Positions 39,366 to 60,502 of a stretch of DNA of 64,000 nucleotides are shown piece by piece (the first letter of the stretch is position 1; each line of letters starts with the position of its first letter). The notes under the pieces are model-generated. The model did no database searches, was not told the DNA's origin, and worked only from the letters and a program-made list of their open reading frames with translations. The DNA comes from Alphaproteobacteria bacterium. GTDB taxonomy: Bacteria; Pseudomonadota; Alphaproteobacteria; Bin95. The DNA lies in assembly GCA_965205265.1 (NCBI GenBank), contig CBDBGH010000003.1, forward strand, positions 2,368,001-2,432,000, in the 5' to 3' direction. The position numbers were made by a program, and so were the translations under genes.

Positions 39366-40122
39366 GCGGGCCATTGTCGGCGCCGCCAGCAAGGGGCTCG
39401 GCAAGGGCTGCGCCATGGCGCTCGCCGAGGAGGGCGTGCATCTGGTCATCAACGCCCGCACGGCCTCGGAACTCGAGGCGACGGCGGAGGAAATCCGCGC
39501 CGCCGCCGGCGTCGAGGTGAAGGCCGTCGCCGGCGACATCACGCAGCCCGAGGTCCGGCAGGCGATCCTCGCCGCTTGCCCCGAACCGGACATACTGGTG
39601 ACCAATGCCGGCGGCCCGGCGCCCGGCAATTTCCGCACCGACACGCGCGAGCGCTGGCTCGCGGCGCTGGAGGCCCAGCTTCTCGGCCATGCCGAGATGA
39701 TTACCGCTGTGGTGGACGGCATGGCCGAGCGCGGCTTCGGGCGGATCGTCAACATCACCTCGCAATCGACCAAGATGCCGGTGCCCAATCTCGGCCTCTC
39801 GACATCGGCGCGCCTGGCGCTCCAGGGCTTCTGCAACACCATCTGCCGCGAGGTCGTGGACCGCAATGTCGTCATCAACAACCTGCTGCCGGGGCCGTTC
39901 GACACCGACCGGCTGCAAAGCGGCATCGTCCATGCAGCAAAGCAGGCCGGCATCGACGTGGACGCAGCGCGCAAGCAGCGCATGGCCGCAACGCCGGCCG
40001 GGCGTTTCGGCACGGCCGAGGAGTTCGGCAAGGTCTGCGCCTTTCTCTGCAGCGAGCATGTCGGCTTCATGACCGCCAACAGCGTGCTGATGGACGGCGG
40101 GCTCTATCCGGGGACCTTCTGA
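39343..40122 (+). CDS. SDR-family oxidoreductase
   Basis: AASKGLG, TNAGGP, GRIVNITS, DGG. Confidence 0.9.
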   Translation: MDLGIAGKRAIVGAASKGLGKGCAMALAEEGVHLVINARTASELEATAEEIRAAAGVEVKAVAGDITQPEVRQAILAACPEPDILVTNAGGPAPGNFRTDTRERWLAALEAQLLGHAEMITAVVDGMAERGFGRIVNITSQSTKMPVPNLGLSTSARLALQGFCNTICREVVDRNVVINNLLPGPFDTDRLQSGIVHAAKQAGIDVDAARKQRMAATPAGRFGTAEEFGKVCAFLCSEHVGFMTANSVLMDGGLYPGTF

Positions 40123-40193
40123 GCCGTGCGCGGCGCGGCCATTCGCGCTCCGCAGCGCAGAGGCGGCGCGGCGGCGCGGGAAGCGGGACGGAT

Positions 40194-40796
40194 ATGCTGA
40201 GAGCGGGCGATCTCGACCATTTCGTGCACGCGCTCGGCCGTGCGGTGCGAGAGGCGGTGCCGCCGGGCGGGCCGGAAGCGGCGCTTGCGGCGCGCATATT
40301 CGATGCGCTGGAGACGCCGGGAGAACTGCCGCCCGACGGTCTGAAGCCGAGCCGCCCCGCCCCGGCCGAGGCGCTGGACGCGGCATTCGCGCTCGCGGCG
40401 CAGGGGCCGGAGCCGGTGCAGCATGCGGCGGGCGCGCTCCGGGCGATGGACCCCCGGCTGGCATGGGGGCCGAGGCTCGGCAGCGAGGACGACCCGGCCT
40501 TCCGCAAGGCCCATGCCAACGCCGTGCTGACGGGCGCGGACGGTCTCGAACGGCGCGAGGATGTCCGCGTCGGGGTAAGTCTTGTGGCGCCGCACACCGA
40601 CTATCCGAGGCACAACCACCCGCCGGAGGAGCTCTATTTCGTGCTCGCGCCCGGCGACTGGTGGCGCGAGGACCTGGGCTGGCGGGCGCGGCCGGCGGGC
40701 AGCATCCAGCACAACCCGCCCCATGCCTGGCACGCCATGCGCACGGGCGAAACGCCGCTGCTCGCCGTCTGGTGCCTCTGGACGGCGGACGCCTGA
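40194..40796 (+). CDS. Cupin of the DMSP-lyase-like family
   Basis: YPRHNHPPEELY...HNPPHAWHAMRT...PLLAVW. Confidence 0.65.
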   Translation: MLRAGDLDHFVHALGRAVREAVPPGGPEAALAARIFDALETPGELPPDGLKPSRPAPAEALDAAFALAAQGPEPVQHAAGALRAMDPRLAWGPRLGSEDDPAFRKAHANAVLTGADGLERREDVRVGVSLVAPHTDYPRHNHPPEELYFVLAPGDWWREDLGWRARPAGSIQHNPPHAWHAMRTGETPLLAVWCLWTADA

Positions 40797-40860
40797 CGCC
40801 CGCGGCGAGAGGCGGGCATGGCGGTTCCGGCCATGACCGCTCAGTGAAATCCGGGCTAGA

Positions 40861-42126
40861 ATGGCCGCAATGCAGCGTTATTCGATCTTTTCGCTTCTGA
40901 GGGGCGCGCTCTCCGGGCATCGGGACTGGAAGCCGGCCTGGCGCGCGCCGGCGCCGAAACCCTCCTACGACGTCGTCATCGTCGGCGGCGGGGGACACGG
41001 CCTCGCCACCGCCTACTACCTCGCCCGCAACCACGGCATCGCGAATGTCGCCGTGCTGGAGCGCGGCTGGATCGGCGGCGGCAATACCGGTCGCAACACC
41101 ACCATCGTACGGTCCAACTACCTGCTGCCGGAAAACCAGCGTTTCTACGAACATTCGCTGAAGCTCTGGGAAGGGCTGAGCCGCGACCTCAACTACAATG
41201 TGATGTTCTCGCCACGCGGCGTCATCAACGTCTTCCACACCGACGCCCAGCGCGATTACTGGGTGCGCCGGCACAACGGCATGCGCTACGCCGGCATAGA
41301 CGCGGAACTGCTGACCCGTGCCGACCTGGCGCGGCTCGTCCCGGCGCTCAACCTCTCGCCGGACATCCGCCATCCCATCGTCGGCGGCGTGATGCAGCCG
41401 CGCGGCGGCGTCGCCCGCCACGACGCCGTCGCGTGGGGCTATGCGCGCGCCGCAGACGCGCTCGGGGTGGACATCATCCAGGACTGCGAGGTGACCGGCA
41501 TCGACATCCAGTCCGGCAGGGTGGCGGGGCTGCAGACCAGCCGCGGACCCATCGGGGCCGGCCGGGTCGGCCTTGCCGTCGCCGGGCATTCCTCGCGCCT
41601 TGCGGAAATGGCGGGCATCCGCCTGCCCATCGAGACGCATCTGCTGACCGCGACGGTCTCGGAGCCGGTCAAACCCTTTATCGACACCGTCGTCTCGATC
41701 GCCGCAACGCATGCCTATGTGAGCCAGACCGACAAGGGCGAAGTGCTGATCGGCGGCAGCCTGGACGGCTACAATTCCTGGTCGCAGCGCGGCAGCCCGG
41801 CGCGCCTGGAGGACATACTGGCGTCGGTCTCGGAATATTTCCCGCGCGTCTCGCGCCTGCGCCAGCTACGGCACTGGGCAGGCGTCATGGACATGAGCAT
41901 GGACGGGAGTCCCATCATCGCCAAACTGCCGGTGGAGGGCCTCGCCATGACCGGCGGCTGGTGCTACGGCGGCTTCAAGGCCACGCCCGCCTCCGGCTGG
42001 TGCCTCGCCTGGACGCTCGCCAACGACGCCCCGCATGCGCTGAATGCGCCGTTCTCGCTCGAGCGCTTCCGCACCGGCGCCGTGCTGGACGAGAACGGCG
42101 CCGGACCCGTGGCGTGGGGACATTGA
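40861..42126 (+). CDS. soxB: Sarcosine oxidase beta subunit
   Basis: GGGGHGLATAYYLA, GGNTGRNTTIVRSNY, GGFKATP. Confidence 0.9.
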   Translation: MAAMQRYSIFSLLRGALSGHRDWKPAWRAPAPKPSYDVVIVGGGGHGLATAYYLARNHGIANVAVLERGWIGGGNTGRNTTIVRSNYLLPENQRFYEHSLKLWEGLSRDLNYNVMFSPRGVINVFHTDAQRDYWVRRHNGMRYAGIDAELLTRADLARLVPALNLSPDIRHPIVGGVMQPRGGVARHDAVAWGYARAADALGVDIIQDCEVTGIDIQSGRVAGLQTSRGPIGAGRVGLAVAGHSSRLAEMAGIRLPIETHLLTATVSEPVKPFIDTVVSIAATHAYVSQTDKGEVLIGGSLDGYNSWSQRGSPARLEDILASVSEYFPRVSRLRQLRHWAGVMDMSMDGSPIIAKLPVEGLAMTGGWCYGGFKATPASGWCLAWTLANDAPHALNAPFSLERFRTGAVLDENGAGPVAWGH

Positions 42127-42139
42127 GGGGACGCGGACC

Positions 42140-42400
42140 ATGCTTCTGATACCCTGCCCTTTCTGCGGTGCGCGCGACGAGACGGAGTTCGCCTATGGCG
42201 GCGAAGCCGGAATCGAGCGCCCGGCGGACCCCGAGGCCGCAACCGACGAGGCCTGGACGGACTATCTCTGCTTCCACGACAACCCGAAGGGTCCGCATCG
42301 CGAGCTCTGGTTCCACCGCGACGGCTGCCGGCGCTGGCTGGAGGTCGAACGCGACACCTACAGCTACGATCTGGGCGCGGTGCGGCTGAGCCGGCCATGA
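42140..42400 (+). CDS. soxD: Sarcosine oxidase delta subunit
   Basis: CPFCGAR..EF.YGG, ELWFHRDGCRRW. Confidence 0.9.
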   Translation: MLLIPCPFCGARDETEFAYGGEAGIERPADPEAATDEAWTDYLCFHDNPKGPHRELWFHRDGCRRWLEVERDTYSYDLGAVRLSRP

Positions 42401-45348
42401 AGCGCCAGCCCTTCCGCGCGGCCGAGGGCGGTCATCTCATCGACCGCTCGGAACCGCTCAGATTCGACTTCGACGGCCACCGCCACGAGGGCTACCGGGG
42501 CGACAGCCTGGTCTCCGGCCTGCTGGCGGCGGGCGTGCGGATCGTGGCGCGGAGCTTCAAATACCACCGCCCGCGCGGCGTCTGGGGCTTCGGCCCGGAA
42601 GAGCCGAACGCCATGGTGACGACAGGCGTGCGCGGGGAGGCCCGGCCGAACCTGAAGGCGACCGAGGTCCCGCTCTCGGAGGGGCTGGAGGCCTTCGGGC
42701 AGAACGCCTGGCCCTCGGTTTCCTGGGACCTGGGCGGCGCGTTCGGCCTGGCCGGCGGGCTGATGCCGGCGGGCTTCTACTACAAGACTTTCATGGCGCC
42801 GGCGCGCTGGTGGCATGCGTTTTATGAGCCGCTGATCCGGCGCATGGCGGGCTTCGGGCCGGCGCCGCGCACACCGGATGACGCCTTCTACGCCAAGCGG
42901 CGCATCCACACCGACGTGCTGGTAGCGGGCGGCGGGCCGGCGGGCGTGGCGGCGGCGCTGGCGGCGGCGCGCGCCGGGGCCCGGGTGGTGCTCGCCGACG
43001 AGAATGTCCGCTTCGGCGGCGACCTGCTGCGCGCGCCCGGCGAGATCGGGGACAGCGACGGGCTTGCCTGGGTCGATGCCGCGACCGCCGAACTGGAGGC
43101 GATGAGTCATGTCCGCCTGCTGCGCCGCGCCACCGTCGCCGGCTATTACGACCACAACCTGCTGACGGTCGCCGAGCGGGCCGGACAGGAGGAGGGCGCG
43201 CCCGGCGCGCCGGCAATGCGGCTCTGGTTCGTGCGGGCCCGCGAGGTCGTGATTGCCGCCGGCGCGCATGAGCGTCCGCTGCTCTTCGACGGGAACGACC
43301 GGCCGGGCGTCATGTCGGCCTCAGCGGCCGGCGGCTATGCCCATGCCTATGGCGTGCTGGCCGGGCGGCAGGCTGTCGTCGCCGGCAACAATGACAGCAT
43401 CTACAGAGTGGCGCGGCTGTTGCGGAGCGCGGGCGTCGGCATCGCCGCCGTGGCCGACACCCGGTCCGGCGGCGATGTGCGCGACCTGCCCTGCCGCGCG
43501 GGCGAAGCTGTCGATCGGGTTCTGGGCAGCCGCCGGGTGCGCGGCGTCCTGCTCCGCCGGGCCGACGGCAGGGCCGGAGGCAAGGGCGAGCGAATCGCCT
43601 GCGACCTGGTGGCCGTTTCCGGCGGCTGGAGCCCGGCGGTGCATCTGCACGCCCAGGCGCGCGGCAGCTTCTGCTACGACGAGGAACGGGGATTGATCCT
43701 GCCCGACCGGCCGGGCGGCGCAAACCGGAGCGCGGGCGCAGCCGCCGGGCGTTTCGACCTCGACGGCTGTCTTGAAGAAGGCTGGGCCGCAGGCGCCGCC
43801 GCTGCGGCCTCCTCGGGGCACGAACGGGCCGCCGGCGAGCCGCCGCGCTCGCCCGACCGCAACGCCGGCGAGGCGCCCGTCTTCTGGCAGCCGGGCGGCG
43901 GCAAGCGCTTCGTCGATCTGCAATACGACGTAACCGCAGCGGATGTGGACCTCGCCGCCCGCGAGGGCTACCGCTCGGTCGAGCATGTGAAGCGCTATAC
44001 CGCGCTCGGCATGGGCACCGACCAGGGTAAGACCTCGGGCATGGCGGGCCTCGTTCTCCTCTCCGAAGCGCTCGGGCGGCCGGTGGCGCAAACCGGGACG
44101 ACGACCTTCCGCCCGCCCTATACGCCCGTACCGATAGCGGCCATGGCGTCGGGCCTCATCGGCGAGGGACGGGACGCGCTGCGCCGCACGGCGGCCGATG
44201 ACTGGCACGAGGCGCGCGGCGCTCCCTTCACCGCCGCCGGCCACTGGCGCCGGCCCCGCTATTATCCGCGCGAGGGCATGAGCGAGGAGGAAGCCATCGC
44301 CGCAGAAGTGCGCGAGACCCGCGCCGGCGTCGGCATCGTCGACGTCGGCACGCTCGGCAAGGTCGATATCCAGGGGCGGGACGCCGCGGCCTTCCTCGAC
44401 CTCGTTTATGCGAACCGGATGTCGAGCCTGAAGACGGGGCGCGGCCGCTACGGGCTGATGCTGCGCGAGGACGGGCGGGTATTCGACGACGGCGTCTGCA
44501 TGCGGCTTGGCGAAAACCACTTCTACCTGACGACTACGACCGCCCATCAGCACGAGGCGATGCAGCATATCGAACTGCTGCTTCAGACCGTCTGGCCGGA
44601 GCTGGAGGTCTATGCCACGGATGTCACCGAGCACTGGTTCGCGGCTGCGCTTGCCGGCCCCGGCTCGCGGGCGCTGCTGGAGCGGGCTGCGCCGGAGCTC
44701 GACCTTTCGGACGACGCCTTCCCGATGATGGCGGTGCGCGCGGCGACCGTCGCAGGCCTCTCGGCGCTCGTATTCCGGATGAGCTTCTCGGGCGAACTCT
44801 CCTATGAGATCGCCGTGCCCGCCGATCACGGGCTCGCGCTGTGGACGCGGCTCCTGACCGAGGGACGTGAGGACGGGCTCACGCCCTACGGCACCGAGGC
44901 GATGGGCGTCATGCGCATCGAGAAGGGCCATGTGACCCACGCCGAAGCGGATGGCCGCACGACGCCGGACGATCTGGGCCTCGGGCGCATGGTCAGGGCG
45001 GAAGGCCCCGGCATCGGCAAGCGCTCGCTCGACCTGCCCGCGCTCCGCCGGAACGGCCGCCAGCAGCTTGTCGGCCTCTCCGTCATCGACGCGCAAGCCC
45101 GCATCCCGCCCGGATGCCAGGTGGTGGAGAGCGACGACATGAAGCCCGCGCCGCCGCTCGGCCATGTCACCTCCTTCTGCTACAGCCCGACGCTCGGCCG
45201 GGCGCTGGCGCTCGCGCTGGTCGAGAACGGACGGGCGCGAACCGGCCAGACGGTCTATATCGCCTCGCCGGTCATCGACCTCTCCATGGCGGCGGAGATC
45301 GTCTCGCCGGTCTTCTACGACCCGCAAGGGACGCGGCTCAATGGCTGA
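42397..45348 (+). CDS. soxA: Sarcosine oxidase alpha subunit
   Basis: RSFKYHRPRG, GFYYKTF, KRYT.LGMG.DQGK, GcvT-like C-terminal half. Confidence 0.9.
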   Translation: MKRQPFRAAEGGHLIDRSEPLRFDFDGHRHEGYRGDSLVSGLLAAGVRIVARSFKYHRPRGVWGFGPEEPNAMVTTGVRGEARPNLKATEVPLSEGLEAFGQNAWPSVSWDLGGAFGLAGGLMPAGFYYKTFMAPARWWHAFYEPLIRRMAGFGPAPRTPDDAFYAKRRIHTDVLVAGGGPAGVAAALAAARAGARVVLADENVRFGGDLLRAPGEIGDSDGLAWVDAATAELEAMSHVRLLRRATVAGYYDHNLLTVAERAGQEEGAPGAPAMRLWFVRAREVVIAAGAHERPLLFDGNDRPGVMSASAAGGYAHAYGVLAGRQAVVAGNNDSIYRVARLLRSAGVGIAAVADTRSGGDVRDLPCRAGEAVDRVLGSRRVRGVLLRRADGRAGGKGERIACDLVAVSGGWSPAVHLHAQARGSFCYDEERGLILPDRPGGANRSAGAAAGRFDLDGCLEEGWAAGAAAAASSGHERAAGEPPRSPDRNAGEAPVFWQPGGGKRFVDLQYDVTAADVDLAAREGYRSVEHVKRYTALGMGTDQGKTSGMAGLVLLSEALGRPVAQTGTTTFRPPYTPVPIAAMASGLIGEGRDALRRTAADDWHEARGAPFTAAGHWRRPRYYPREGMSEEEAIAAEVRETRAGVGIVDVGTLGKVDIQGRDAAAFLDLVYANRMSSLKTGRGRYGLMLREDGRVFDDGVCMRLGENHFYLTTTTAHQHEAMQHIELLLQTVWPELEVYATDVTEHWFAAALAGPGSRALLERAAPELDLSDDAFPMMAVRAATVAGLSALVFRMSFSGELSYEIAVPADHGLALWTRLLTEGREDGLTPYGTEAMGVMRIEKGHVTHAEADGRTTPDDLGLGRMVRAEGPGIGKRSLDLPALRRNGRQQLVGLSVIDAQARIPPGCQVVESDDMKPAPPLGHVTSFCYSPTLGRALALALVENGRARTGQTVYIASPVIDLSMAAEIVSPVFYDPQGTRLNG

Positions 45349-45946
45349 CGAACCCGCCGATATCCGGCGCAGCGCCCTTGCCGGGCTCGACCTCGGCTCG
45401 CGCGCCGGCGGGGCGGGCGGCGTGCTGCTGGCCGAGGGCGCGGCGCGCGAGGGTTTCGTGCTGCGCGGCCCGGCCGGCGACGCGGGGTTCGTGCAGGCCG
45501 TCGAGGCAGCTTTGGGAGCCGCCCTGCCGCTGGAGCCGGGCGAGGCGGCCGAGAACGGGGCCGGCGCCCTGCTCATCCGCCTCGGCCCGGACGAATGGCG
45601 GCTCATCGCGCCGCTCTCGGACGGTGGCCGGCTCGCGGCCCGCCTCGCCTCGGGGCTCGGCAGCGGTCCCGGCGCGCTGGTGAACGTCTCCTCCGCCGAG
45701 ACCGTCATCGCCGTCGCCGGCGAGCGGGCGGCGGACCTGCTGGCGACCGGCACCGGCATCGACCTCGACCCGGCTGCCTTCCCTCCGGGGCGGGCCGTCC
45801 GCACCCGCATCGGCAACGCCCAGGCGCTTGTCCACCGCAAGGCGGAGGATGCGTTCGACCTCCATGTCCCGCGCAGCTACGCCCGCTCCTTCTGGGAATG
45901 GCTGGAAGAGCGCGGCCGCGAGTTCGACGCCGCCGTCGCGCTGTGA
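45341..45946 (+). CDS. soxG: Sarcosine oxidase gamma subunit
   Basis: [21 protein letters not shown]. Confidence 0.85.
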
Positions 45947-49239: not shown

Positions 49240-50271
49240 ATGGTGGAGATGTTCTCTAAACGCGCGAGTTCCCGCTCGCTCGCGAACCTTGCCCCGGGCG
49301 AGGTAAAGTCCGTGGTCGAGGGATACAACGCGATTTACGACGCCGGCGAGCAGGGCAGGAGAGAGCAATACCGCTCGCTCGTAAATCACTACTATGACCT
49401 GGTTACCGACTTCTACGAGTTCGGCTGGGGCCAGTCTTTCCACTTCGCGCCCCGGCGGCGCGGCGAGAGCTTCAAGGCGTCGCTGCTCAGGCACCAGCAT
49501 TTTCTCGCCGACCGGCTGGCCCTGAAGCCGGGGATGCAAGTGCTCGATGTAGGATGCGGGGTCGGCGGGCCGATGGGCAACCTGGCGCGCTATGCCGGCG
49601 CCGGCTTTGTCGGCATCAACAACAATACCTACCAGATCGAACGCGCGAAACATCATACCCGGGATGTGCGCTCGTTGTGCCGCTTCATCCACGGCGACTA
49701 CATGCGGATTCCCGAAGGCGACGATCGCTACGATGCCGCGTTCGCCATCGAGTCCATGCCCCACGCGCCGGACAAGACGGGGGCGTTCCGCGAAATCCTG
49801 CGCGTCCTGCGCCCGGGCGCCTGTTTTGCGGGTTACGAGTGGTGCCTCACCGATGATTTCGACCCCGCAAACGCGGAGCACCAGTGGATCAAGAACGAAA
49901 TCATGGTGGGGGATGCGCTACCGGAGATCGCGTCCATGCCGGAGATTTGCGACGCCTTGCGCACGGCCGGGTTCGAGCTTCTGGAAGCCGGGGACCGCGC
50001 GCCCGAATCGGATCCCGGGACGCCATGGTACCGCGCCCTGCAGGGCCGCGACCTCACTCTTTCGAGCATTCCGCGCACGCCTTTCGGTCGGGCTCTCACC
50101 AATCTGACGCTGCGGGCGGGGGAGAGGCTGCGGCTGTTCCCGAAAGGCTCCCGCGCAGTCAGCACGCTGCTGAACGCGGCGGCGGATGCGCTGGTCGAAG
50201 GCGGCAGGACGGGCATCTTCACGCCGATGTATTTCTTCCTGGCCCGCAAGCCTCAGCGCCCCGGCGGCTGA
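49240..50271 (+). CDS. smt: Sterol 24-C-methyltransferase (SMT/ERG6-like)
   Basis: YYDLVTDFYEFGWGQSFHFA, LDVGCGVGGP, AIESMPHAP, LRPG..F..YEW, GIFTPMY. Confidence 0.9.
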   Translation: MVEMFSKRASSRSLANLAPGEVKSVVEGYNAIYDAGEQGRREQYRSLVNHYYDLVTDFYEFGWGQSFHFAPRRRGESFKASLLRHQHFLADRLALKPGMQVLDVGCGVGGPMGNLARYAGAGFVGINNNTYQIERAKHHTRDVRSLCRFIHGDYMRIPEGDDRYDAAFAIESMPHAPDKTGAFREILRVLRPGACFAGYEWCLTDDFDPANAEHQWIKNEIMVGDALPEIASMPEICDALRTAGFELLEAGDRAPESDPGTPWYRALQGRDLTLSSIPRTPFGRALTNLTLRAGERLRLFPKGSRAVSTLLNAAADALVEGGRTGIFTPMYFFLARKPQRPGG

Positions 50272-53223
50272 ACGCGGCGCGTCCCCGGCCGCAGGGCCAC
50301 CGGCGCTCAGGAAAGGGAACGGGCGGAAACCGCCTCCGGCAAGGGCGGCGCCGACCCGCCGGTGCAGGCAGCAGGAGCGGCGAGGTCCACCCGGTTCCGG
50401 CGGCGGCGCTCATAGAGGCCGAGCGCGTGCAGCGGGAAATACTGCCGGTAGAGCACGTAATCCAGAAGCGCCGTGCGGAAGAACACGCCGGCCATGTCCT
50501 GTTTGGGCCATGCCCCTTCGCCGTCCTGCGTGTCGAGCAGGAACCGGGCGCCCCGCGAAATCGCGGTCCAGTCCGGGTCTCCCGCCTCGAGGAGCGCGAT
50601 CAGGGCCCAGGCGGTCTGGATGACCTGGCTCTCCTCGTGCGGGACATAGCGGCCGGTCAGGCAGCCGCTGTGGTGCTCGCCCCATCCTCCGTCTTCACGC
50701 TGGCGCTCCAGCAGCCAGCGGCAGGCCGAACGCAGCGCGGGATCGCCGGGACGGGCCCCGGCGGCAAGCAGGCCCCTGATGCCGAACAGGGTGCCGTAGA
50801 TGAACTGGACGCCCCATACGCCGCGCCATGACCCATCGATCTCCTGGGCCCGGCGCAAACAGGTCTCGGCCCTCGAAACGGCCTCCGTCACCGCCCCATC
50901 CGCAATTTCGGGAAACCGCTCCCTGCAGGCGGCCAGCGCGGCGAGGCAGGAAGCGGTGCACTCCACGAAGGAATGCTCGGTCATCGAATCGCCGAACATC
51001 TCGGCCGGATTCAACCATTCCAGACCGAAAACCGAACGCTGCGCCTCATAGCTGCCGAATCCGCCGTCGCGGTTCTGGCCGCGCAGCATGAAGGCGACCG
51101 CATCGCCGAGCGCCGCCCAGTCCGCACCGCCGGCCGCGATGAGTCCGAGCACCGCTTCCGCCGTGCAGTCGCTCACCGGCCAGCCATGCCAGCCGCCCGC
51201 AAAGCACCAGCCGCCTCTGGGGTCGGTCCGGTAGGCCTCGCGAAACCCCTCGAAGCTCCTATCGATCTGCTCACCCAGCAGGAAACCGGCGCCGCGCCCG
51301 AGCGCCTCCTCGATCCCGGCGGGTTCGGGCAGCGCCGCCAGCGCCTGCAGCGCGAACCCCGTGTCCCAGGAGGCGCTTCTCGCGCCGGTGACGCGCGCGC
51401 CTTCGTCCTCGTCTTCCCAGATCCACCCGTCCAGCTGCTCGAGTGCCTGCTCGCAATCGGCATCATCCGGATCGTGCAGCCATAGCGCCAGAATGTTGAG
51501 GAGGCCGCTGACCGGGGAGATGCTCGTGTGGCTGGTGGTTTGCAGTTCCCATTTGATGCGCCCGACAAGCGCCTCCGTGCATCTTGCGCGAAGGCGCCTG
51601 GCGTGGAACCGCTCGAACAGCCGCGCCAGCCCGTATCCGGCCCTGAGCCAGAGGCTCGGCCACCGATAGAGGTCGGCCACCCGCAGGCGATTTCGGGCGG
51701 CAGAGAAATCGACACTGGCAAAGCCTTGCGGGAACAGCTCCTCCCGCAGCGACTCGGTCAGTGGCGTAACGGGCGCCTGGAACCGGCGCGCGTAAATCGC
51801 CGCCATCGCCATGTAGATGAGCCGGGTATGGCAGTACCAGTTCGAGGGGTGCAGCGGCAACCGGCGCGGCAGACTCCAGAGTTCCGGCAGAACCGCGTTC
51901 ACCCCGCGCCAGTCATAGAGGTTGAGGAGCGCCAGCCAGAATTTTCCCCAGCTCGGAATGCCCAGAACCCCTTCGGCCTGAAGGAACCGCCGGGCCGGCT
52001 CGACCAGGGGATCGTCCCGCCCGACGCCCAGCAATCTCGCCGCGACATAGACGAGCGCGGTGACGAACAGGTGGGGCGGCGAGTGCTCGTGCAGGCCCCA
52101 TGCGCCGCCTTCGAGACGGGTCCGCTCGAAGGAGCGCAGCACGCGCCGGCGGCGGCCCGGTTCCAGCGGCCGTCCGACAATGTGATGCAGCAGCGCATAT
52201 TGCGCGGTGAGCATGGGGCACCAGACCATCTCGCCTTCCCAGGCGCCGTCCTCTCTCTGGAGGCTCAGCAGGCGCGCGGCCGCGCTTTTCAACGCCGGCC
52301 CGGCATCGGGCGGTTCGACCTCCCTTGAGCGCGCGGGCCTGGAGGGTTCGCCCCCGGAAGGCATGGAGTACAGGAAGGCGCGGGCAAGGGCGTCGCGGGT
52401 TTGCCTGTTTTCTTCCCGGCCCTCGCGACTCGCCTTCCGCAACTGCCGAACGCCGCGCTGGAGCCACCAGATGCGAACGGCGAGCGCACTGAAGACGGCC
52501 CGCGCCCGATGCGAGGCGAAGCGGCGGAACGAGAACGGATTCTCCCGGGTCAACGCCCGGGTCACCGTGCCGCAAAATGCGAGTGTCATGCCGATCGCGG
52601 ACCGGTCCTCGCAGGCGAGTATCCGCGTGGTCCGGTCGCGGTAGGCCGAATTCGCCCGCCAGCCTCGGTAGATCGCGGATCTGAGGGCCATCGACTCGAT
52701 GCGGTAATCGGCGAAGACCTCATAGAGCCCCATTGCCAGGAACTCGGGAATACGGGTCGCCCGGAAGCGTTCGGCGGTGAAGTCCCGGAAGCGCTCGTTC
52801 TCGGCGAGCGTCAGCGCATCGCCGAAACCGAGCGTCATGCCGACCGCCGTCATGGGATGGTAGTGCCCGGCCGCGTCGCCGATCAGCACCCGGCGCGGGC
52901 TGCCGTACGTGACGCGCGGCCTCAGCCGATTGGCCGCCGCATGGAATTGGCCCGCCCGCAGCGCCTCGACGAAGGCCGGCCCGAGAGCCCCCGGCAGCAG
53001 CCCGGCACAGGATTCCGACAGGAAGGCGACCCGGTCCCGGGGCGTCCAGCGGTCCAGCGGCAGATCGACGATGATCCGGACGCAACCGCCCGCCAGACCG
53101 TATATGAGGATCGGACCGGGCCCGCCCAGCACCACATGCCCGTAGCCTTCGAAGGGCAGGTCCGCCCCGCCTATCGTCACTCCCAGCATCCGCGAGCAGA
53201 GCATCGGGTCCGTGGAGAGCCCC

Positions 53224-55137
53224 CTGACTTCGACGGTTGATTCGCATAAGTAGTTGATATTGCCTGGTTCTCATTTCGGCTAGGCACTACATCCGGCATT
53301 TCTTCGAGCCGTGCTTCGTCGACGGTCAGGCGAGTTGATACGGGGTGATCGTCAGGGGCAGCCCCATGGTTGCGTAAATCTGCTCCGCCGCCGGTGTCGG
53401 CTTCGAGGGGATGACGTAGCGGTTGCCCGATTGCCGACAGCGCAGCAGGGAGCACTGGCGGTGGACGAGGGCGGAGCGGATGACCTCCGGGGACATCCGC
53501 CGCTTCTGGATGGCGACGCGGTACGCAAGGTGTCGAACGCAGGCGAAGGCCAGGAAGGCGATGGCGATGTGAGCGCGGATCCGGTCCGGGTTCCAGTGCC
53601 AGATGGGACGTATCTTCAGGTCGTGTTTGGTGATCCGGAAGCTCTCCTCGACCTGCCAGAGCCCCTGGTAGTGAGCCATCACTTCGGTGACGCGCGCGTC
53701 GCGCAGATTGGTGATGACGCCGGTGAGCCCGTCCCATCGTGCGGCCTCGGCGATCTTCTCCGGGTTCACCGTGAGCCGTGCGTCGCCCTCGACGGCGATG
53801 AAGCGCTTCGCCCCGTGATTGGAGAGCAGTTCCCTGGGATTGTCGCTGCGGGCCAGCCTGTCGAGCAGGCGTTCCACCTGATGGCGGCGCTCGTGCGCGT
53901 CCTTGCGTGCGCGCTGGGGGCAGAAGACGACGATCAGGCGACGGCCCTTGTACTCCCACTCGCCGACCCGGCGGTCCTGTGAGCCCTCCAGCGGGGCATA
54001 GGTCCCGGGGTCGAGAACCTGCCCCAGCAGCGCGAGCGGCAGCTTGCGCAGCCGCGCGCCGACGACATACTCGCCGCCGATGGCGTCCATGGCGTCGAGG
54101 TTGTCGGCGCTCAGCATGCCCCGGTCGGCCACGCATACCGTGCGCTCCACCTGGTGGCGGCGCTGCATGTCCTGCAGGACCGGGACCATGCTGTGTCCCT
54201 CGTAGGTGGCGCCGGGGAAGACCTCGTAGCTGATCGGCAGCCCTTCGCGCGTCACCATCAGCGCCAGCAGAACCTGCGAGTCCTTGTGTTTGCCGTCCTT
54301 GCTGAAGCCGTGCTGGCGAAGCTCGTCCTCGGCGGCCGTCTCGAAGTAGAGCGTGGTGCAATCGAAGAAGAGGATCGCGACCGGCTCCGGCAGCAGCGAC
54401 CGGCTCGCCTCGCCGACGCGCGTGCGCAGTCGCTCGATCACCGTCGCGTCGAGCTGATCCATCATCCGGTAGACCTTCTCGAGCGGAAGACTCACGCCGA
54501 AGTCCTCCTCGAGCCGGCGCACGCTGCCCCGCTTGCTGTCGGGGTTGGCTACCCGCGCCATCACCACATGGAACAGCGCGTCATGGGAGGCCCGGTAGCG
54601 CGAGCGCGGCAGCAGCGCGTCGAGGCCCAGCAGCCGGTAGATCTCGCCATAGACCTCGTGGATGCCTGTGATCAGGCGCTGCTCCTCTTCAAGCTGCTTG
54701 AGGTCGACCGGGAGTTCCTCCTTGCCGTCCCCCCGGCGGCCGACACGGATCGCCTGCTCAGCGATCTTCTCGGGCGCAAACAATGCCGGCTGACGCTCGT
54801 CCTCCAGCTTCGCCTTGACGTACTCGCCGAGCTGCCTCAGGCGCTCGAGCTCGTCCTCGTCCATGGCCACGCCGACATGGCGGACGATGCGCTGTCGGAC
54901 CTTGCCGCCGTCGCGCACGGCCTCGACGATCTGGACCGAGCGTCGCGGGCTGTTGGGGGAGGTCTTGATGCGCACGAACATGGGGGGAGTGTAGCGCGTG
55001 GCGGAGGCATTGACAGTCTCAAAGATTTACTAGGCACTACAACGCAGCTTGACCGCACCGCAACTGCCAACTCATTGGCTTTACTGAAAACTCCAGACGC
55101 GAGATCGGTCAGAAGTCAGCCCAACCGTCGAAGTCAG
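53224..55137 (-). mobile_element. IS1634-family element, copy 2 (~1914 bp)
   Basis: Same TIRs and identical translated transposase as copy 1; 118-bp direct repeat at 53106-53223 and 55138-55255. Confidence 0.9.
53326..54981 (-). CDS. IS1634-family DDE transposase
   Basis: 551 aa, identical to 21089-22744. Confidence 0.9.
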   Translation of the reverse strand: MFVRIKTSPNSPRRSVQIVEAVRDGGKVRQRIVRHVGVAMDEDELERLRQLGEYVKAKLEDERQPALFAPEKIAEQAIRVGRRGDGKEELPVDLKQLEEEQRLITGIHEVYGEIYRLLGLDALLPRSRYRASHDALFHVVMARVANPDSKRGSVRRLEEDFGVSLPLEKVYRMMDQLDATVIERLRTRVGEASRSLLPEPVAILFFDCTTLYFETAAEDELRQHGFSKDGKHKDSQVLLALMVTREGLPISYEVFPGATYEGHSMVPVLQDMQRRHQVERTVCVADRGMLSADNLDAMDAIGGEYVVGARLRKLPLALLGQVLDPGTYAPLEGSQDRRVGEWEYKGRRLIVVFCPQRARKDAHERRHQVERLLDRLARSDNPRELLSNHGAKRFIAVEGDARLTVNPEKIAEAARWDGLTGVITNLRDARVTEVMAHYQGLWQVEESFRITKHDLKIRPIWHWNPDRIRAHIAIAFLAFACVRHLAYRVAIQKRRMSPEVIRSALVHRQCSLLRCRQSGNRYVIPSKPTPAAEQIYATMGLPLTITPYQLA

Positions 55138-55754
55138 GAGGATCGGACCGGGCCCGCCCAGCACCACATGCCCGTAGCCTTCGAAGGGCAGGTCCGCCCC
55201 GCCTATCGTCACTCCCAGCATCCGCGAGCAGAGCATCGGGTCCGTGGAGAGCCCCAGCGACCGGCGCACGATCGAGGCCCGGCCGTCGGCGCCGACGATG
55301 CGCGCGGCGGTTACGGCGCGCTCGTCGCCGCCTACGGAAAAGGCGACCTGCCCGTCATCGACCGCCTTGACCCGTGCGTGGGAAATGAAATCGACACCGG
55401 CCTCCTCCTCGATCGCTTCGCGGAGGCTCGAGACAAGCAAGGCGTGGTCGCACGCCAGACCGCGGGACCCGTCCGGGTAAGGAAGCAGGATCGGCTCCGA
55501 GCCGTCCTCCGGAAACACCGCGAATCCGTTGCCCGGGGTGCTGCGGGGCAGCGCGTCGATGTCTATCCCGACCTCGCGCAATATCCTGACGGCCGGCGGA
55601 TGCAGCCATTCGCCGGCCAGGCGCCCCGACGCCCTGGGATTGGCTTCCAGCAGGGCCACGCGGGCGCCCCGGCGCGCATGGGCGAGCGCGCACAGGCTCC
55701 CCACCGGGCCCGCGCCGACAATGGCTACGTCGTAAGGCCGCCCCGCGGCGGCGC

Positions 55755-57164
55755 TCATCGGAAAACGCTCGGCTCCGCGCGGCGGCGGTAGCGGACCCGG
55801 CACGGGGCCTCGGGCCCCGTCACCCAGCTGCCGTAATTCGGGCGCGGGAACCTCGAGTCGGCAGTGAAGTCGAAGCGGTCGAGCAGAACCGTCCAGATCG
55901 CCTTGAGCTGCATATAGGCGAAGTTCTTGCCCATGCATGCATGTTTGCCGCCGCCGAAGCCGATCAGGGCGTAATGGTGCTGCCTGTCCTCGCTGGCGGG
56001 GGGCGCGAAACGGTCGGGGAAGAACCGCTCCGGGTCGGCGAAGACATGGGGCAGGCGGTGGGAGACCGCCGGCGACACCATGGCCATGGTGCCGGCAGGC
56101 ACGACACTGCCCCTGTAGCGGAGCGGTTCGAGCACCTTCCGGATCAGCAATATCAGCGGCGGGTGCAACCGCTCGCATTCTCGCACGGCGTTTTCCATCG
56201 CCGGCTGGCGCTGGAGGCTGTCGAGGCTTATGGACCCCGCTTCGCGGTAAACCTCCCGCATCTCCTCCCTCAATCGCGCCAGGTAGGAGGGCGCCCTGAA
56301 GAGCTCAAGGCCGGTCCAGGTCGCAAGCACCGCGCTGGTGTGCTGGCCCGCGAACAGCACCGTCAGCAGAATCCCCGTGATCTCGTCGTCGCTGAGAGCG
56401 CGGCCATCCTTGTAACGGGCATTCATGAGCGTCTGCATGAAGTCGTCGGGGCCGCCCCCTGCATGGCGGCGCGCCGCCATGATCCCGCCGAAGATCTCCG
56501 CCACCTTCCGCCGGGCCCGGTCACGGCTTCTGTGCGCGGGGGTGGGAAGTCTCGGAAGGAAGAACCCGAGCGTGTTAATACCCTTCTGCAGGTCGTGGTA
56601 GGCCTCGGCGAATCCGGTGTCCACCCGGTCGCGGACCTCCTGCCCGATCAGGCAGCGGCTGGCGATCCTGACGGTGAGCTCGTTCATCGCATGCGGCAGG
56701 TCGATGTTCCCCTCCTCGCCGAGGGCGTCGGCGAAAGCGCTCGCCTCCTCGAACATGATGAGGGCGAATTTCCGCATGGCGGCCTCGCGGAGCGCGGGAA
56801 ACAGGAATCCCAGCTGCTCCGCCATGATTTCCGGCGAGGTGTCATAGGCCACGCCGCGCCCGAAGACGGGCACGGTGAAGCGGTAGACCGCCTTGGCGTT
56901 CAGCTGGGTCTCCGGCGCCCTGAAATAGAAGTCGTGGGCTTCGGGCCCGGCGAAGAGGACGAAATCGCGGACACCCAGCCTGAAGCGGAAGAGGTCGCCA
57001 TGCTCGCGCCAGCCGCGGCTCAGCATGGCGACCGGGTCCCGCTGGAATTCCCTGAGATGGCCGATCAGCGGCCAGCTGCCCGCCAGTTCCGGAACGGGCT
57101 CTTCCGGCCGCGGCGGGGGGTCCGCGGCATGCAGGGTCGCCATGCTGTGAGACCGGTTCGCCAT
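55755..57164 (-). CDS. cyp51: Sterol 14-alpha-demethylase cytochrome P450 (CYP51)
   Basis: YRFTVPVFGRGVAYD, AGQHTS, ECERLHPP, FGGGKHACMG. Confidence 0.9.
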   Translation of the reverse strand: MANRSHSMATLHAADPPPRPEEPVPELAGSWPLIGHLREFQRDPVAMLSRGWREHGDLFRFRLGVRDFVLFAGPEAHDFYFRAPETQLNAKAVYRFTVPVFGRGVAYDTSPEIMAEQLGFLFPALREAAMRKFALIMFEEASAFADALGEEGNIDLPHAMNELTVRIASRCLIGQEVRDRVDTGFAEAYHDLQKGINTLGFFLPRLPTPAHRSRDRARRKVAEIFGGIMAARRHAGGGPDDFMQTLMNARYKDGRALSDDEITGILLTVLFAGQHTSAVLATWTGLELFRAPSYLARLREEMREVYREAGSISLDSLQRQPAMENAVRECERLHPPLILLIRKVLEPLRYRGSVVPAGTMAMVSPAVSHRLPHVFADPERFFPDRFAPPASEDRQHHYALIGFGGGKHACMGKNFAYMQLKAIWTVLLDRFDFTADSRFPRPNYGSWVTGPEAPCRVRYRRRAEPSVFR

Positions 57165-57172
57165 CCCCGCCC

Positions 57173-58273
57173 TCAATGGATGAACGGCAGCATCGAGAAA
57201 CGCGCCTGCTGCGTGTAGCGTTCCCACAGCTCGCCGTATTTGGCCCGGCAGCGGCGCTCGTCGCGTATCGAGCGGTGCCACAGGAGACCCGCCAGCCATG
57301 CCGGCAGCAGGTAGGGGACCCAGGATGCGAACCCGGTCGTCAGCGCGAAAGCGAGATAGATGCAGATCTCGCCGGTATAGTTGAGATGCCGCCCGATTCC
57401 CCAGAATCCGGAGACCAGGAGTCGCCCGTCCAGGGTCCGGGCGGGCTGCCCCCAGATCGTGACATCGGGGTCGCGCTTGAAGCCGTGCTTCTGCTGGTTT
57501 GCTCCGCGGAAGAGCCAGAAGCCGAAGGCGAACAACAGGACGACGGCCATGGCGGCGGCCGGAGACAGCGGGTCCGGCGCGTGAACCAGCCACCAGCCGG
57601 GCAGGCAATAGAAGAACGGCACCAGCACATAGTCGCCCCAGACCAGCATCCATCCGAAGCGCTCGCTGATGATGTCCCAAGTGTGGATCATGCCGTGCTC
57701 GAACTGGAAGTAGTTGAGCACGTAGAGGAAGGTGAACGCCTGATAGAGCGCCATCGCCAGGGTAAGCTCGCCATAGGTTTCCCACTGCACGACGGCGAAG
57801 GAGGCGTTGAAGAGCGCCAGGCCGATGAGGGAGGGGCGGTAGCTGAACAGCTTCAGGTCCAGCCCGAACCGGACCGGGCCGGCATCGACGCCGCCGAAAT
57901 AGCCCCGCCAGAATCCCGGCGGAGCGCCGGGCGCCCGCGCGCCCCGCAGATACAGCCAGCCCGCAAGCGCGAAGGCGAAGGCGTTCGCCGCCACGAACAG
58001 GGCGGCGAAGTGGGTGTAAAGCGCCGAAAGGGAGAACCAGCCGAAGAACTGGGCGAGGCCCGCCGCGAACGCGGCGATCAGGAAAAGCGCGAGGCCGTTC
58101 AGCTTGTAGATGCGCTCATTGCCCTCGGCGTCCGGCCCCGCGATGCGGCGGCCGGGAAGGACAATCGAACCCAGGAAGAGCAGCGCGACGAACACCAGCG
58201 CCATTGCCGCCGCTTCGAGCAACGCCCCGCCCGACAGCGCGGACGACAGGGGGGACGCTTCAGGCAGGGACAC
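57173..58273 (-). CDS. ERG4/ERG24-family sterol reductase (probably Delta-14)
   Basis: YKLNG, DLKLF...RP, DIISERFGWMLVWGD, LLVSGFWG..RH.NYTGE, RDERRC..KYG. Confidence 0.88.
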   Translation of the reverse strand: MSLPEASPLSSALSGGALLEAAAMALVFVALLFLGSIVLPGRRIAGPDAEGNERIYKLNGLALFLIAAFAAGLAQFFGWFSLSALYTHFAALFVAANAFAFALAGWLYLRGARAPGAPPGFWRGYFGGVDAGPVRFGLDLKLFSYRPSLIGLALFNASFAVVQWETYGELTLAMALYQAFTFLYVLNYFQFEHGMIHTWDIISERFGWMLVWGDYVLVPFFYCLPGWWLVHAPDPLSPAAAMAVVLLFAFGFWLFRGANQQKHGFKRDPDVTIWGQPARTLDGRLLVSGFWGIGRHLNYTGEICIYLAFALTTGFASWVPYLLPAWLAGLLWHRSIRDERRCRAKYGELWERYTQQARFSMLPFIH

Positions 58274-59345
58274 CGCCGTCCCCCGACCCGCGGGCCAGAG
58301 TTTCCCGCCATTTGCGCACCGTGACTTCCTGAAAGGCCTTGACCACCGGATTGAACTCGACGGGCCGCGCGTCCCAGTGTTTCTCGTAACCCTCCTGTTC
58401 CGCTTCGAGCGCAAACCGGTCCTGGTCGAGCAGGGGGGCGATGAGCGCGCGGTTGGAGATTTTCATCACCGCAGTCATGGCGAAACGCGGAATGCGCACC
58501 GGCAGGAACGGTATTTTCAGAGACTTGAAATAGAACAGGAAGAACACCCGGGTGGTGCGTTCGTCCATGGGCAGCACGAACAGCCAGTGCTTGATCTCGT
58601 CATCGGTGTTCGACCACTGGTAGGGATATTCGTAGCAGAGCTCCATACGGTTGGTGTTGAGCCGCTCATGGTCCACGAACAGCCCCGAGATGCGCCCGCG
58701 CCCGACGCGCGTGTCATAGGCGAGATGCACATTGTCGCCGACGGTTTCGCAGGAGGCGAGCTCGGCTCCGTCGAAGGGCCGGTAGCGGCGGTGCAGATGC
58801 GCATGGGTGAAGTCGCTCACATTGTCGATCACCATCGAGTGGTGCGCCGCCCATGTGAAGCGCAGCGGCACGCAGGTCCAGCGGCCGGGCCCCTCCAGCT
58901 CGGGAATCTCCGGGATCCCGCGCTGCTCCGCCTGCTCCGGGTCGCCCGGGAAGAGCCAGACCAAGCCGTAGCGGACCTTCACCGGATAGGTCTTGAGCGC
59001 AAGCCGCGGGAAGCTTCGCCCGTTGCCGTCATAAGGGACCCCGGCAGGACGCTCCCTGCCGCCATATTCCCAGCCGTGATAGGCGCACACCAGCCGGCAT
59101 CCCTCCACATGACCGATGGAGAGCTTGAGCTGGCGGTGCGCGCAGCGGTTCTCGATCGCCTGGAAAGAACCGTCCGTTCCCCGGAACAGCGCAATCGAGT
59201 GCTTCCAGAAAACGACCTCGACCACCGTTCCCGGCTTGACCCGGCGCACTTCCTCCACCGCATACCAGTAATTCGGGTCCATGCCCGCGGCGCGCGCCTG
59301 CTGGCGGAGCGTGCCGGCCTCCTCGAAGCAGGGCGGCGGCCTCAT
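58260..59345 (-). CDS. Rieske oxygenase, SdmA-like candidate sterol C-4 methyl oxidase
   Basis: CAHR...CAYHGW Rieske ligands; DNVSDFTHAHLH mononuclear Fe motif; sterol-cluster context. Confidence 0.75.
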   Translation of the reverse strand: MRPPPCFEEAGTLRQQARAAGMDPNYWYAVEEVRRVKPGTVVEVVFWKHSIALFRGTDGSFQAIENRCAHRQLKLSIGHVEGCRLVCAYHGWEYGGRERPAGVPYDGNGRSFPRLALKTYPVKVRYGLVWLFPGDPEQAEQRGIPEIPELEGPGRWTCVPLRFTWAAHHSMVIDNVSDFTHAHLHRRYRPFDGAELASCETVGDNVHLAYDTRVGRGRISGLFVDHERLNTNRMELCYEYPYQWSNTDDEIKHWLFVLPMDERTTRVFFLFYFKSLKIPFLPVRIPRFAMTAVMKISNRALIAPLLDQDRFALEAEQEGYEKHWDARPVEFNPVVKAFQEVTVRKWRETLARGSGDGGVPA

Positions 59346-60502
59346 GTCGCGCTCCCGCCCGGCATCGCCTGGAGGCCCGGGTGCGGCGCGGGATTTTCCG
59401 CCCCTCCCGCGGCGCGCTGATCCGGGACGTCGGCGCGCGGCGGTTTTGCGGACGGATTCACGATTGCGTTGCGGGCGAAGTGAAATGCGTAGGCTTCATG
59501 AACCGCGTCGCGGATGCCGGTCGGCCGGTAGCCGAGCTCGCGTTGCGCCTTGCCGGTGTCGGCATGGCGGCGCTTTTTCAGCAGGCGGATGGCGCCGGGC
59601 GTGAAGCGCTGGGGAAAGTCCGGATGGAACCGGCTCAGGTAAGAGCTCGCCACTTCCGAAAAGGCGAGCATCAGGGGGGCGGGAATCCGCCGGCGCGGCC
59701 TCGGGACGCCCGAGACCTCCTCATACAGACCCACGATCTCCGAGATGGTCTTGTACTCGCTGCTGAAGATGTATTTTTCGCCCGAGCGGCCGCGGCGCAT
59801 GCACAGCAGGTGCCCCTCGACAATGTCGCGCGCCGCGACGAACTCGAACCCGCCGTCGATATAGGCATGAAGCTTGCCATTGGTGTAGTCGCAGAGCGTC
59901 CTTCCCAGCCGCGAGGGCAGATAGTCGGCGCCTCCCACCACTGCGCAACAGGTCGCGACCACGACATCCTGCCCTGTGGCCGCCGCGCGCCAGCATTCCT
60001 GCTCGACCAGCGACTTGCTGCGCTCATAGGGCATCGTGCGTTCCATGGGATAGAACGGCATTGTCTCGTCGCTGGGCGCGGACGGATCGTCCAGATCGTA
60101 GCCGACCGCGCTGAAGGAGCCGGTCACGACCACACGGCCGGCCTCGGCTTCCCGCGCCGCCTGCAGCACGTTGCGGGTGCCGCGAACATTGCACTCGAAC
60201 ACCTCCCGGCGATGGGCCCGGTTGCCCTCGATGGTCGATATCTTGGCCGCGACATGATAGACGCCCCGGCAGCCGGCGAGCGCCTGCCTCGTGGCATTCA
60301 AATCCCGGATGTCGCCGAACACGCGCTCCACATCGAGGCCTTCCAGCCCCTCATTGTTGTCCTCGCACCTCAGCAACACCCGGACCCGCACGCCGTCGCC
60401 GAGCAACCGGCGCACGAGATTGGCGCCGACATGCCCGGCCGAACCGGTAACGAAAACGGGCGGCGTCGGCGAACCCGCCGGCATGCTCGATGGAGACGTC
60501 AT
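59342..60502 (-). CDS. NAD(P)-dependent epimerase/3-beta-HSD family, SdmB-like candidate
   Basis: VTGSAGHVG, GDIRD, YERSK; ATGA overlap with the Rieske gene. Confidence 0.75.
   Translation of the reverse strand: MTSPSSMPAGSPTPPVFVTGSAGHVGANLVRRLLGDGVRVRVLLRCEDNNEGLEGLDVERVFGDIRDLNATRQALAGCRGVYHVAAKISTIEGNRAHRREVFECNVRGTRNVLQAAREAEAGRVVVTGSFSAVGYDLDDPSAPSDETMPFYPMERTMPYERSKSLVEQECWRAAATGQDVVVATCCAVVGGADYLPSRLGRTLCDYTNGKLHAYIDGGFEFVAARDIVEGHLLCMRRGRSGEKYIFSSEYKTISEIVGLYEEVSGVPRPRRRIPAPLMLAFSEVASSYLSRFHPDFPQRFTPGAIRLLKKRRHADTGKAQRELGYRPTGIRDAVHEAYAFHFARNAIVNPSAKPPRADVPDQRAAGGAENPAPHPGLQAMPGGSAT

Follow-up and report, generated by a model that had tools for sequence, protein, structure and literature searches.

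An IS1634-family insertion in a predicted MsbE-type squalene epoxidase–oxidosqualene cyclase fusion gene of an alphaproteobacterial sterol cluster

The sterol gene cluster and its interrupted gene

The window, i.e., the whole 64,000-nucleotide stretch of DNA that was analyzed and to which all positions refer, carries six sterol genes in the order sdmB-sdmA-erg24-cyp51-(SE-OSC)-smt, which is the same as the published msb order. On the minus strand lie the genes for an SdmB-like NAD(P)-dependent dehydrogenase/decarboxylase (59342..60502; msbA equivalent), an SdmA-like C-4 methyl oxygenase with Rieske and VanA_C domains (58260..59345; msbB equivalent), an ERG24-type sterol C-14 reductase (57173..58273; PF01222; msbC equivalent) and a CYP51-like sterol 14-alpha-demethylase (55755..57164; PF00067; msbD equivalent), the last two with predicted start codons. 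The SdmB-like and SdmA-like proteins scored 286 bits on NF052578 and 400 bits on NF052579, respectively, both below the cut-off of 600. The gene for a sterol C-24 methyltransferase (49240..50271, plus strand; PF08498 and Methyltransf_11; msbF equivalent) is convergent on the fusion gene. All these five genes have open frames, as does the squalene synthase gene located elsewhere in the genome.

The sixth gene, encoding a squalene epoxidase (SE) fused to an oxidosqualene cyclase (OSC), is present as two pieces on the minus strand, and its ATG overlaps the stop codon of CYP51 (ATGA). The N-terminal piece (55081..55758; 225 aa) comprises residues 1-207 followed by 18 IS-encoded residues up to a stop, and contains an FAD Rossmann fold with GxGxxG at 15-20, GEWLHP and GADG. 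The C-terminal piece (50307..53204) is a 965-aa ORF, the ATG of which corresponds to residue 175 of the rebuilt protein; it contains the remaining SE half, the linker and the complete OSC half, and lacks the GxGxxG and DG FAD motifs.

Joining 55758-55138 to 53105-50307, which deletes the insertion sequence (IS) and one copy of its flanking repeat, reproduced the 1139-aa frame of the original prediction (3420 nt, sole stop at the end). The rebuilt protein has an FAD squalene epoxidase half, a stop-free linker of ~25 aa (52305..52380, minus strand; about residues 450-475) and an oxidosqualene cyclase half, with GAGPVG at 15-20 and DCTAE at 853, and GC3 is 0.80-0.87 along the whole frame. The predicted FAD monooxygenase N-terminal half, running without a stop into the cyclase, was borne out by the Pfam domains: FAD_binding_3 in the N-terminal piece, then SE (PF08491), SQHop_cyclase_N and SQHop_cyclase_C without an intervening stop in the C-terminal piece. 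This arrangement in one frame is true of the rebuilt frame, and not of the IS-interrupted gene as it stands. The 320-nt rebuilt junction matched all seven same-genus loci compared without gaps and without an IS (86-94% identity over 318 nt), which excludes a frame arising by chance; together with the one-ORF homologues described below, it also rules out two separate genes.

The insertion is an IS1634-family element (53223..55138, minus strand) of 1916 bp with 17-bp perfect terminal inverted repeats, encoding a 551-aa DDE transposase (53326..54981, minus strand; PF01609; NF033559, 341 bits vs. a cut-off of 100). The predicted 118-bp repeat does exist as an exact 118-nt direct repeat (53106-53223 and 55138-55255), but the target-site duplication proper measures 116 bp, with identical copies at 55139..55254 and 53107..53222 (both minus strand; 118 bp counting the terminal IS bases). 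Among the 55 full-length near-identical IS copies in the genome, the base before a 1914-bp element was always C and the base after it always G, and moving each end outward by 1 base raised the number of copies with exact flanking repeats from 22 to 48. Therefore, an element of 1916 bp with a 116-bp duplication replaced our initial delimitation of 1914 and 118 bp; the rebuilt protein is unchanged by this choice. The direct repeats at these 48 copies are 6-573 bp long (median 136 bp).

The length of the element (within 1.5-2.0 kb), inverted repeats starting with C and flanking direct repeats are all traits of the IS1634 family. The direct repeats of IS1634 and IS1549 are long and variable (8-514 bp), and no mechanism for them had been proposed as of 2008 (PMC2266710). 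Like the element described here, IS1634 of Mycoplasma mycoides and IS1549 of Mycobacterium smegmatis have a length of 1.9 kb and long variable direct repeats; unlike them, ours occurs in a high-GC alphaproteobacterial host, in 55 near-identical full copies.

Family assignment and predicted product of the two halves

The SE half matched PF08491 with 65.7 bits (cut-off 20.1), and the key residues of its FAD motifs GxGxxG, DG and GD were invariant in all 71 intact homologues. In a model of the intact homologue L002, this half showed the full SQLE fold, C-terminal helices included, and aligned with the human SQLE structures 6C6N, 6C6P and 6C6R over 440-444 columns at a by-target TM of 0.80-0.81; these structures ranked ahead of all other flavoproteins. 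Human SQLE (6C6N) is the best solved match by both sequence (E 2e-24) and fold, but it is a stand-alone protein with an identity of only 23-24%. The N-terminal half is accordingly a predicted squalene epoxidase.

For the cyclase half, the best solved sequence relative was human lanosterol synthase (LSS; E 3e-132; 36% identity), and the L002 model matched its fold with TM 0.78-0.79 by target (Foldseek). The 2,3-oxidosqualene cyclase family TIGR03463 gave 739 bits, below its cut-off of 851, as it did for the intact L002 protein (731); it was still the best family, the squalene-hopene cyclase (SHC) family TIGR01507 reaching only 265, and the broader TIGR01787 was passed (498 vs. 322.7). These scores and the alignment to 1W6K ruled out an SHC-type cyclase. 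In agreement with the predicted OSC-type DCTAE in place of the SHC-type DxDD, DCTAE is present at 853-857, with D853, C854, T855 and E857 invariant in 71/71 homologues and A856 in 70/71, and the single D-x-D-D string of the rebuilt protein, DPDD at residue 752, lies away from the catalytic position. According to the alignment to 1W6K and the conservation analysis, the OSC cavity residues (human H232, W387, F444, Y503, W581 and F696) are present, and H633, W787, F842, V851, D853, W971 and F1082 are invariant in all 71 intact homologues.

The active-site segment VSDCTAE (51156..51176, minus strand) places V851 and D853 at human V453 and D455. According to Wei 2016, V453 tracked lanosterol among the bacterial cyclases tested, and only position 453 was conserved. 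The equivalent valine is present in 71/71 intact homologues, so the product of the intact protein is likely lanosterol. Human positions 381 and 449 correspond to A782 and H847 in 71/71, the eukaryotic pattern of T381 with C/Q449 being absent, and for this reason parkeol or a mixture may also be formed. Compared with human lanosterol synthase (1W6K), a stand-alone protein, positions 98, 230, 381, 449 and 697 are M, Y, A, H and F. The pattern at 230/381/449/697 recurs in bacterial cyclases from the sister clades, which are unfused, and these unusual residues therefore do not support a new product specific to the fusion.

Distribution of the fusion and the question of channeling

The prediction of a single ancestral polypeptide was supported, since SE-OSC is one unbroken ORF in 72 of 80 related loci (59-91% identity). 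Among the matches listed, all of the top 120 had 1098-1184 aa with SE and both cyclase domains. Of the non-intact loci, two end at a contig edge, the cyclase is interrupted by a stop codon in three and by a frameshift in one, and another lacks the first 354 residues; only one (L050) is split in the linker, where an in-frame ATG could start a separate OSC. The intact L002 protein is 91% identical to the rebuilt one, and exactly this protein is encoded in a same-genus genome. Against six same-genus genes, dN/dS was 0.15-0.25 for the SE and 0.12-0.16 for the OSC half, showing that the gene is under purifying selection. No copy was seen in seven of 16 same-genus genomes, five of which are 100% complete in 1-5 contigs.

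The fusion is real and common in marine-sponge bacteria, but it had already been described in 2020 and 2023, and calling it a discovery is not supported. Its likeness in architecture and gene order is to MsbE, which is encoded in the msbA-F locus of a gammaproteobacterium living in symbiosis with the sponge Melophlus sarasinorum (Mohanty et al., 2020; PMC7074536); unlike MsbE, the gene studied here is cut by an IS and belongs to an alphaproteobacterial genus. In the passages available, Brown et al. (2023; PMC10070321) mention in their Methods the trimming of fused SMO/OSC proteins in SMT-bearing clusters, and report assays of the methyltransferases and none of a fusion; in their Supplementary Data 1, a single gene id of a metagenomic cluster from Aplysina aerophoba is matched by both the ERG1 and the ERG7 query. 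For Ircinia symbionts, Kelly et al. (2022; PMC9531527) described clusters of steroid genes (CSGs), present in 115 of the 537 MAGs and spread over 10 phyla, in which an ERG24-CYP51-LSS operon under purifying selection is flanked by a convergent SMT1 and by two further genes, one DFR-like and one hypothetical; the long CSG gene is annotated as lanosterol synthase only, and "fused" or "fusion" does not occur in the main text. Passages searched in Wei 2016, Hoshino 2021, Santana-Molina 2020, the nannosterol paper and a cyclase preprint of 2025 contained no mention of this fusion, and our literature search retrieved no biochemical assay of any SE-OSC fusion. As a discovery, the present fusion and cluster carry little weight, being published and common; the intact homologues might still serve as a one-gene squalene-to-sterol module, a candidate for triterpenoid engineering.

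The intact polypeptide would be membrane-associated. Its SE half would epoxidize squalene with FAD, O2 and reducing equivalents, the DCTAE aspartate of the cyclase half would protonate the epoxide, leading to cyclization, most likely to lanosterol, and the resulting sterol would be further modified by CYP51, ERG24, SdmA/SdmB and SMT. It is possible, but in our view doubtful, that the two halves also form a docked machine in which 2,3-oxidosqualene made at the SE site reaches the OSC site unreleased. A 1140-aa two-domain model (whole-chain pTM 0.84) hints at a preferred relative placement of the domains, and the linker is 24-25 aa long in 67 of 71 intact homologues and split in just the one locus of 80; however, its pLDDT drops below 50 at 460-469, and in sequence it ranks with the least conserved parts of the protein (about 0.57). 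In the cyclase tree, comprising 26 rows chosen from 96, all 12 fused cyclases fell in one clade (100/100), but four cyclases that are unfused or fragmentary also branched inside it. These, and the ATG for a separate OSC in L050, make the tether look dispensable. The tree did not establish a single origin of the fusion: the fused state required 4-5 changes on it and formed one clade in 0% of 200 bootstrap trees, although certain rows labelled "unfused" could be fragments. Since SE and OSC both draw their lipid substrates out of the membrane, proximity alone might account for any gain, with no tunnel needed; a fusion of adjacent genes through loss of a stop codon, aided by transfer as one unit, fits the data equally well. 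Should channeling be true, the fusion would provide the first natural case of a channeled entry step in sterol/triterpene synthesis and a one-gene module helping to explain the spread of sterol synthesis across many sponge-symbiont phyla, and the IS-broken copy would be its natural knockout.

Probable inactivation of the gene and its alternatives

The IS interrupts the SE half, at codons 169-207; a full FAD site is present in neither gene piece. The rebuilt gene differs from its homologues at only three highly conserved columns (0-41 in intact homologues), and this, with the identity of the two repeats, indicates that the break is recent; as assembled, the copy is a recently broken gene. The single PF08491 match and the single PF13243 match in the genome both fall in it. 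With no full FAD site in either piece, de novo sterol synthesis is most likely beyond this strain. Taken as a whole, we read the locus, with a probability of about 88%, as a copy of the MsbE-type SE-OSC fusion known from sponge symbionts that lies in a six-gene sterol cluster and was recently inactivated by the IS; the IS1634 element would have jumped into the SE half, duplicating 116 bp and cutting the gene. The locus would then capture the loss of a symbiont's sterol pathway amid an IS burst, with implications for the need for symbiont sterols and for the reading of sponge sterane biomarkers.

A partial loss, in which the 965-aa piece is still translated as a stand-alone cyclase acting on host-derived or alternatively made oxidosqualene, appears improbable. 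The ATG at 53204 opens a frame that covers the OSC half in full, and a search of the IS found no terminator-like site; the same search found no promoter-like site, however, and the piece would drag along about 280 residues of the broken SE half. The alternative eukaryotic squalene epoxidase belongs to the fatty-acid-hydroxylase superfamily, and the genome does contain one gene of this family (PF04116), but about 0.9 Mb away.

The open frames of the other cluster genes and of squalene synthase, the TIGR03463 score below its cut-off and the low identity to SQLE were counted against the overall reading, as were the residues at human positions 381 and 449 and the PF04116 protein as a possible alternative epoxidase.

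We regard as very unlikely a reversible off-switch, in which recombination between the 116-bp repeats excises the IS precisely, so that some cells of the population regain the gene. Long identical direct repeats would in principle permit exact excision, the remaining cluster genes have open frames, and the site is empty in a close relative (RNA run X19) and in the seven same-genus loci; however, these empty sites come from strains other than this one, with identities of about 95% and 86-94%, respectively, and the long repeat is generic, occurring at 48 of the 55 IS copies genome-wide. In sample X1, the repeat-to-IS junction has the depth of its flanks (19.3 vs. 17.7-20.2), and the empty allele is therefore uncommon in that sample; contigs drop rare variants, and rare excision may still occur. 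Plain loss of the gene is also tolerated, given the seven same-genus genomes that show no copy.

The repeat-to-IS junction was found in contigs of two samples, X1 and X3, of which X1 may be the source sample and hence not independent. In the short-read contigs of X1, the 118-nt repeat forms a separate piece with about double depth (49 vs. 18-20). In X3, one 1436-nt contig runs from the gene into the IS with zero differences; the repeat is not a separate contig there, cover is very uneven and the upstream side might be missing, and X4 is barely covered at 52.7-53.3 kb and so says nothing about the site. Despite the 55 near-identical IS copies and a genome contamination of 7.3%, an assembly artefact, with a multi-copy IS pasted into a repeat, is hardly credible in view of the double-depth repeat piece and IS junction in X1, the difference-free spanning contig in X3 and the recurrence of long flanking repeats at 48 of 55 copies. 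These 48 insertions of similar date, with their duplications of widely varying length, constitute a clean data set on the long-repeat behavior of IS1634 elements.

The interrupted reading frame and its IS1634 element

Joining 55758-55138 to 53105-50307 yields a frame of 1139 aa with its sole stop at the end, which carries GAGPVG at residue 15 and DCTAE at residue 853. Pfam assigned FAD_binding_3 to the N-terminal piece and SE, SQHop_cyclase_N and SQHop_cyclase_C to the C-terminal piece. The hidden fusion of squalene epoxidase (SE) and oxidosqualene cyclase (OSC) is therefore borne out, as in silico rebuilding and the domain search gave one frame with an FAD half followed by a cyclase half. In the ORF list, the minus strand holds the C-terminal piece (965 aa, 53204-50307) and a transposase frame of 551 aa (54981-53326).

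The transposase scored 341 bits against the IS1634 model, above the cut-off of 100, and the genome contains 55 full-length copies of the element (53 identical, two with one change), all of which (55/55) have a C immediately before them and a G immediately after. Moving the ends outward by 1 base raised the number of copies with an exact flanking repeat from 22/55 to 48/55; therefore, the element measures 1916 bp (53223-55138) and the duplication at the fusion gene 116 bp. The original prediction was correct in that an exact 118-nt repeat is present (53106-53223 and 55138-55255), which takes in terminal bases of the element besides the duplication. Flanking repeats of the 48 copies span 6-573 bp (median 136); for IS1634 and IS1549, long and variable repeats of 8-514 bp have been reported (PMC2266710). 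The base preceding the repeat is G in 30/48 copies, and the base after it is C in 33/48.

The insertion is supported by short-read contigs at its downstream junction. In sequencing run X1, from which the assembly possibly derives, the repeat forms a separate contig with a depth of 49, and the depth of the downstream repeat-to-IS junction is 19.3 versus 17.7-20.2 in the flanks. In X3, from another sample of the same study, a contig runs from 51813 into the element with zero differences.

The N-terminal piece ends in a stop after 225 aa, and the C-terminal piece starts at residue 175, without the GxGxxG and DG motifs. No second match to PF08491 or PF13243 was found in the genome-wide domain search. 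Since the repeats are identical and this copy has only three changes at highly conserved columns, the break is recent. Among 16 genomes of the same genus, seven have the full unbroken gene, two a partial one and seven no match (five of these seven are 100% complete in 1-5 contigs), and loss is therefore tolerated in the genus. The simplest reading is a recent knockout in the course of an IS burst.

Genome-wide (G000:C3), partial copies are present besides the 55 full ones, some broken up by other elements. The copies at 4892941 and 5202994 have exchanged flanks, the arrangement expected after inversion between two copies. A second identical copy lies in the window at 20986-22901, with a 198-bp duplication, beside an IS66 transposase frame (18656-20734).

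Distribution of the fusion and its genomic context

The SE-OSC fusion is real and common. The contig scan confirmed 284 stretches, and in 72 of the best 80 loci one unbroken ORF covers both halves (59-91% identity; one is cut by the contig start), so that homologues are not invariably two genes and the uninterrupted forms sought are present. The best 120 of 1596 protein matches all measure 1098-1184 aa and have both domain sets, in a search blind to split forms below 627 aa. Scanning 26 of 150 listed 50%-identity representatives revealed nine further, more distant fused clusters. Record titles name Alpha- and Gammaproteobacteria, Binatia, Nitrospirales, Gemmatimonadota and others, and some mention sponges. 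In a sponge metatranscriptome run, whose library may contain DNA, contigs of a relative with ~95% identity run gap-free through both the empty site and the linker.

The fusion itself was known already, and the present copy is a newly found, IS-broken member. Its published counterpart is MsbE of the sponge-symbiont msbA-F locus (Mohanty et al., 2020); of the 537 Ircinia MAGs of Kelly et al. (2022), 115 carry the cluster (PMC9531527), and Brown et al. (2023) trimmed "fused SMO/OSC homologs," with ERG1 and ERG7 mapping to one gene (PMC10070321).

The gene is the fifth in a tight, partly overlapping minus-strand run (SdmB-like, SdmA-like, ERG24, CYP51, SE-OSC), on which a sterol methyltransferase gene converges. 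Across the best 80 of the 284 loci, several of which are cut by contig ends, ERG24 occurs in 64, SdmA in 64, SdmB in 63, the methyltransferase in 51, including one weak match, and CYP51 in 71, of which five are weak P450 matches (22-26%). Within the fetched flanks, some loci, among them L011, L012, L014, L030, L032 and L041, have the fusion without other sterol genes. An open frame resembling a squalene synthase gene is found at another place in the genome.

The genome has one fatty-acid-hydroxylase-family gene (G000:C3:1499006-1499419), a candidate for a sterol desaturase or for an alternative epoxidase. To the left of the sterol cluster is an integrated mobile element, with a TrwC relaxase-helicase of 1827 aa and two adjacent tyrosine integrases (10581-16064 and 30308-32587) and a low-GC stretch at 28-29 kb. 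At 39576-45946, genes for sarcosine-oxidase-like subunits come after one with a DMSP lyase domain, consistent with a marine host.

Predicted chemistry and coupling of the two halves

The intact same-genus protein of locus L002 (91% identical) matched human LSS with an E-value of 3e-132 and human SQLE with 2e-24. Its structural model (mean pLDDT 80.5, pTM 0.84, alignment of 51 sequences) aligned with human OSC at a TM by target of 0.78-0.79 and with human SQLE over 440-444 columns at 0.80-0.81, above other flavoproteins. In 71/71 intact homologues, no variation occurs at the key FAD-motif residues or, in the cyclase, at H633, W787, F842, V851, D853, W971 and F1082. The dN/dS values against six same-genus genes (0.15-0.25 for the SE half and 0.12-0.16 for the OSC half) show that purifying selection acted on both. 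The intact protein would most likely convert squalene through 2,3-oxidosqualene to lanosterol; V at human position 453 accompanied lanosterol in the bacteria assayed (Wei, 2016), whereas the TIGR03463 score of 739, below the cut-off of 851, and A and H at human positions 381 and 449 count against this reading. No biochemical test of the fusion was found in a search of listings and the openings of abstracts, with subscription papers mostly outside its coverage.

The evidence on the suggestion that the fusion channels 2,3-oxidosqualene from SE to OSC points both ways, and channeling is perhaps less likely than not. The high whole-chain pTM of the L002 model, a linker of 24-25 aa in 67/71 intact homologues and the rarity of splitting are consistent with it; however, the linker is poorly conserved and modeled with low confidence, four unfused or fragmentary cyclases fall inside the fused clade of the tree, and locus L050, the only one of the best 80 of 284 split in the linker, is a possible natural split. 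At L050:8640-8960 a stop terminates the SE frame, and a separate ATG lies upstream in the cyclase frame; this represents either natural fission or an assembly frameshift. With 57%, the SE half of L050 has diverged further than its cyclase (77%).

Other architectures occurred among the protein matches. A different fusion family comprises P0199, P0204, P0211, P0213, P0216, P0221, P0223, P0225, P0244, P0245, P0257 and P0258 (1078-1200 aa) and the shorter P0246 and P0269. These polypeptides combine an N-terminal SE, 39-44% identical to that of the present gene, with a middle part of ~400 aa and a C-terminal squalene/phytoene synthase domain. The middle part includes a weak cyclase-like stretch (PF13243, E-values of 8e-8 in P0211 and 1e-7 in P0225), and the family may represent a fusion of synthase and epoxidase whose cyclase is degenerate or unusual. 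P0186 (1022 aa), placed apart from the SE-OSC clade, unites a squalene synthase domain and a full triterpene cyclase in one protein.
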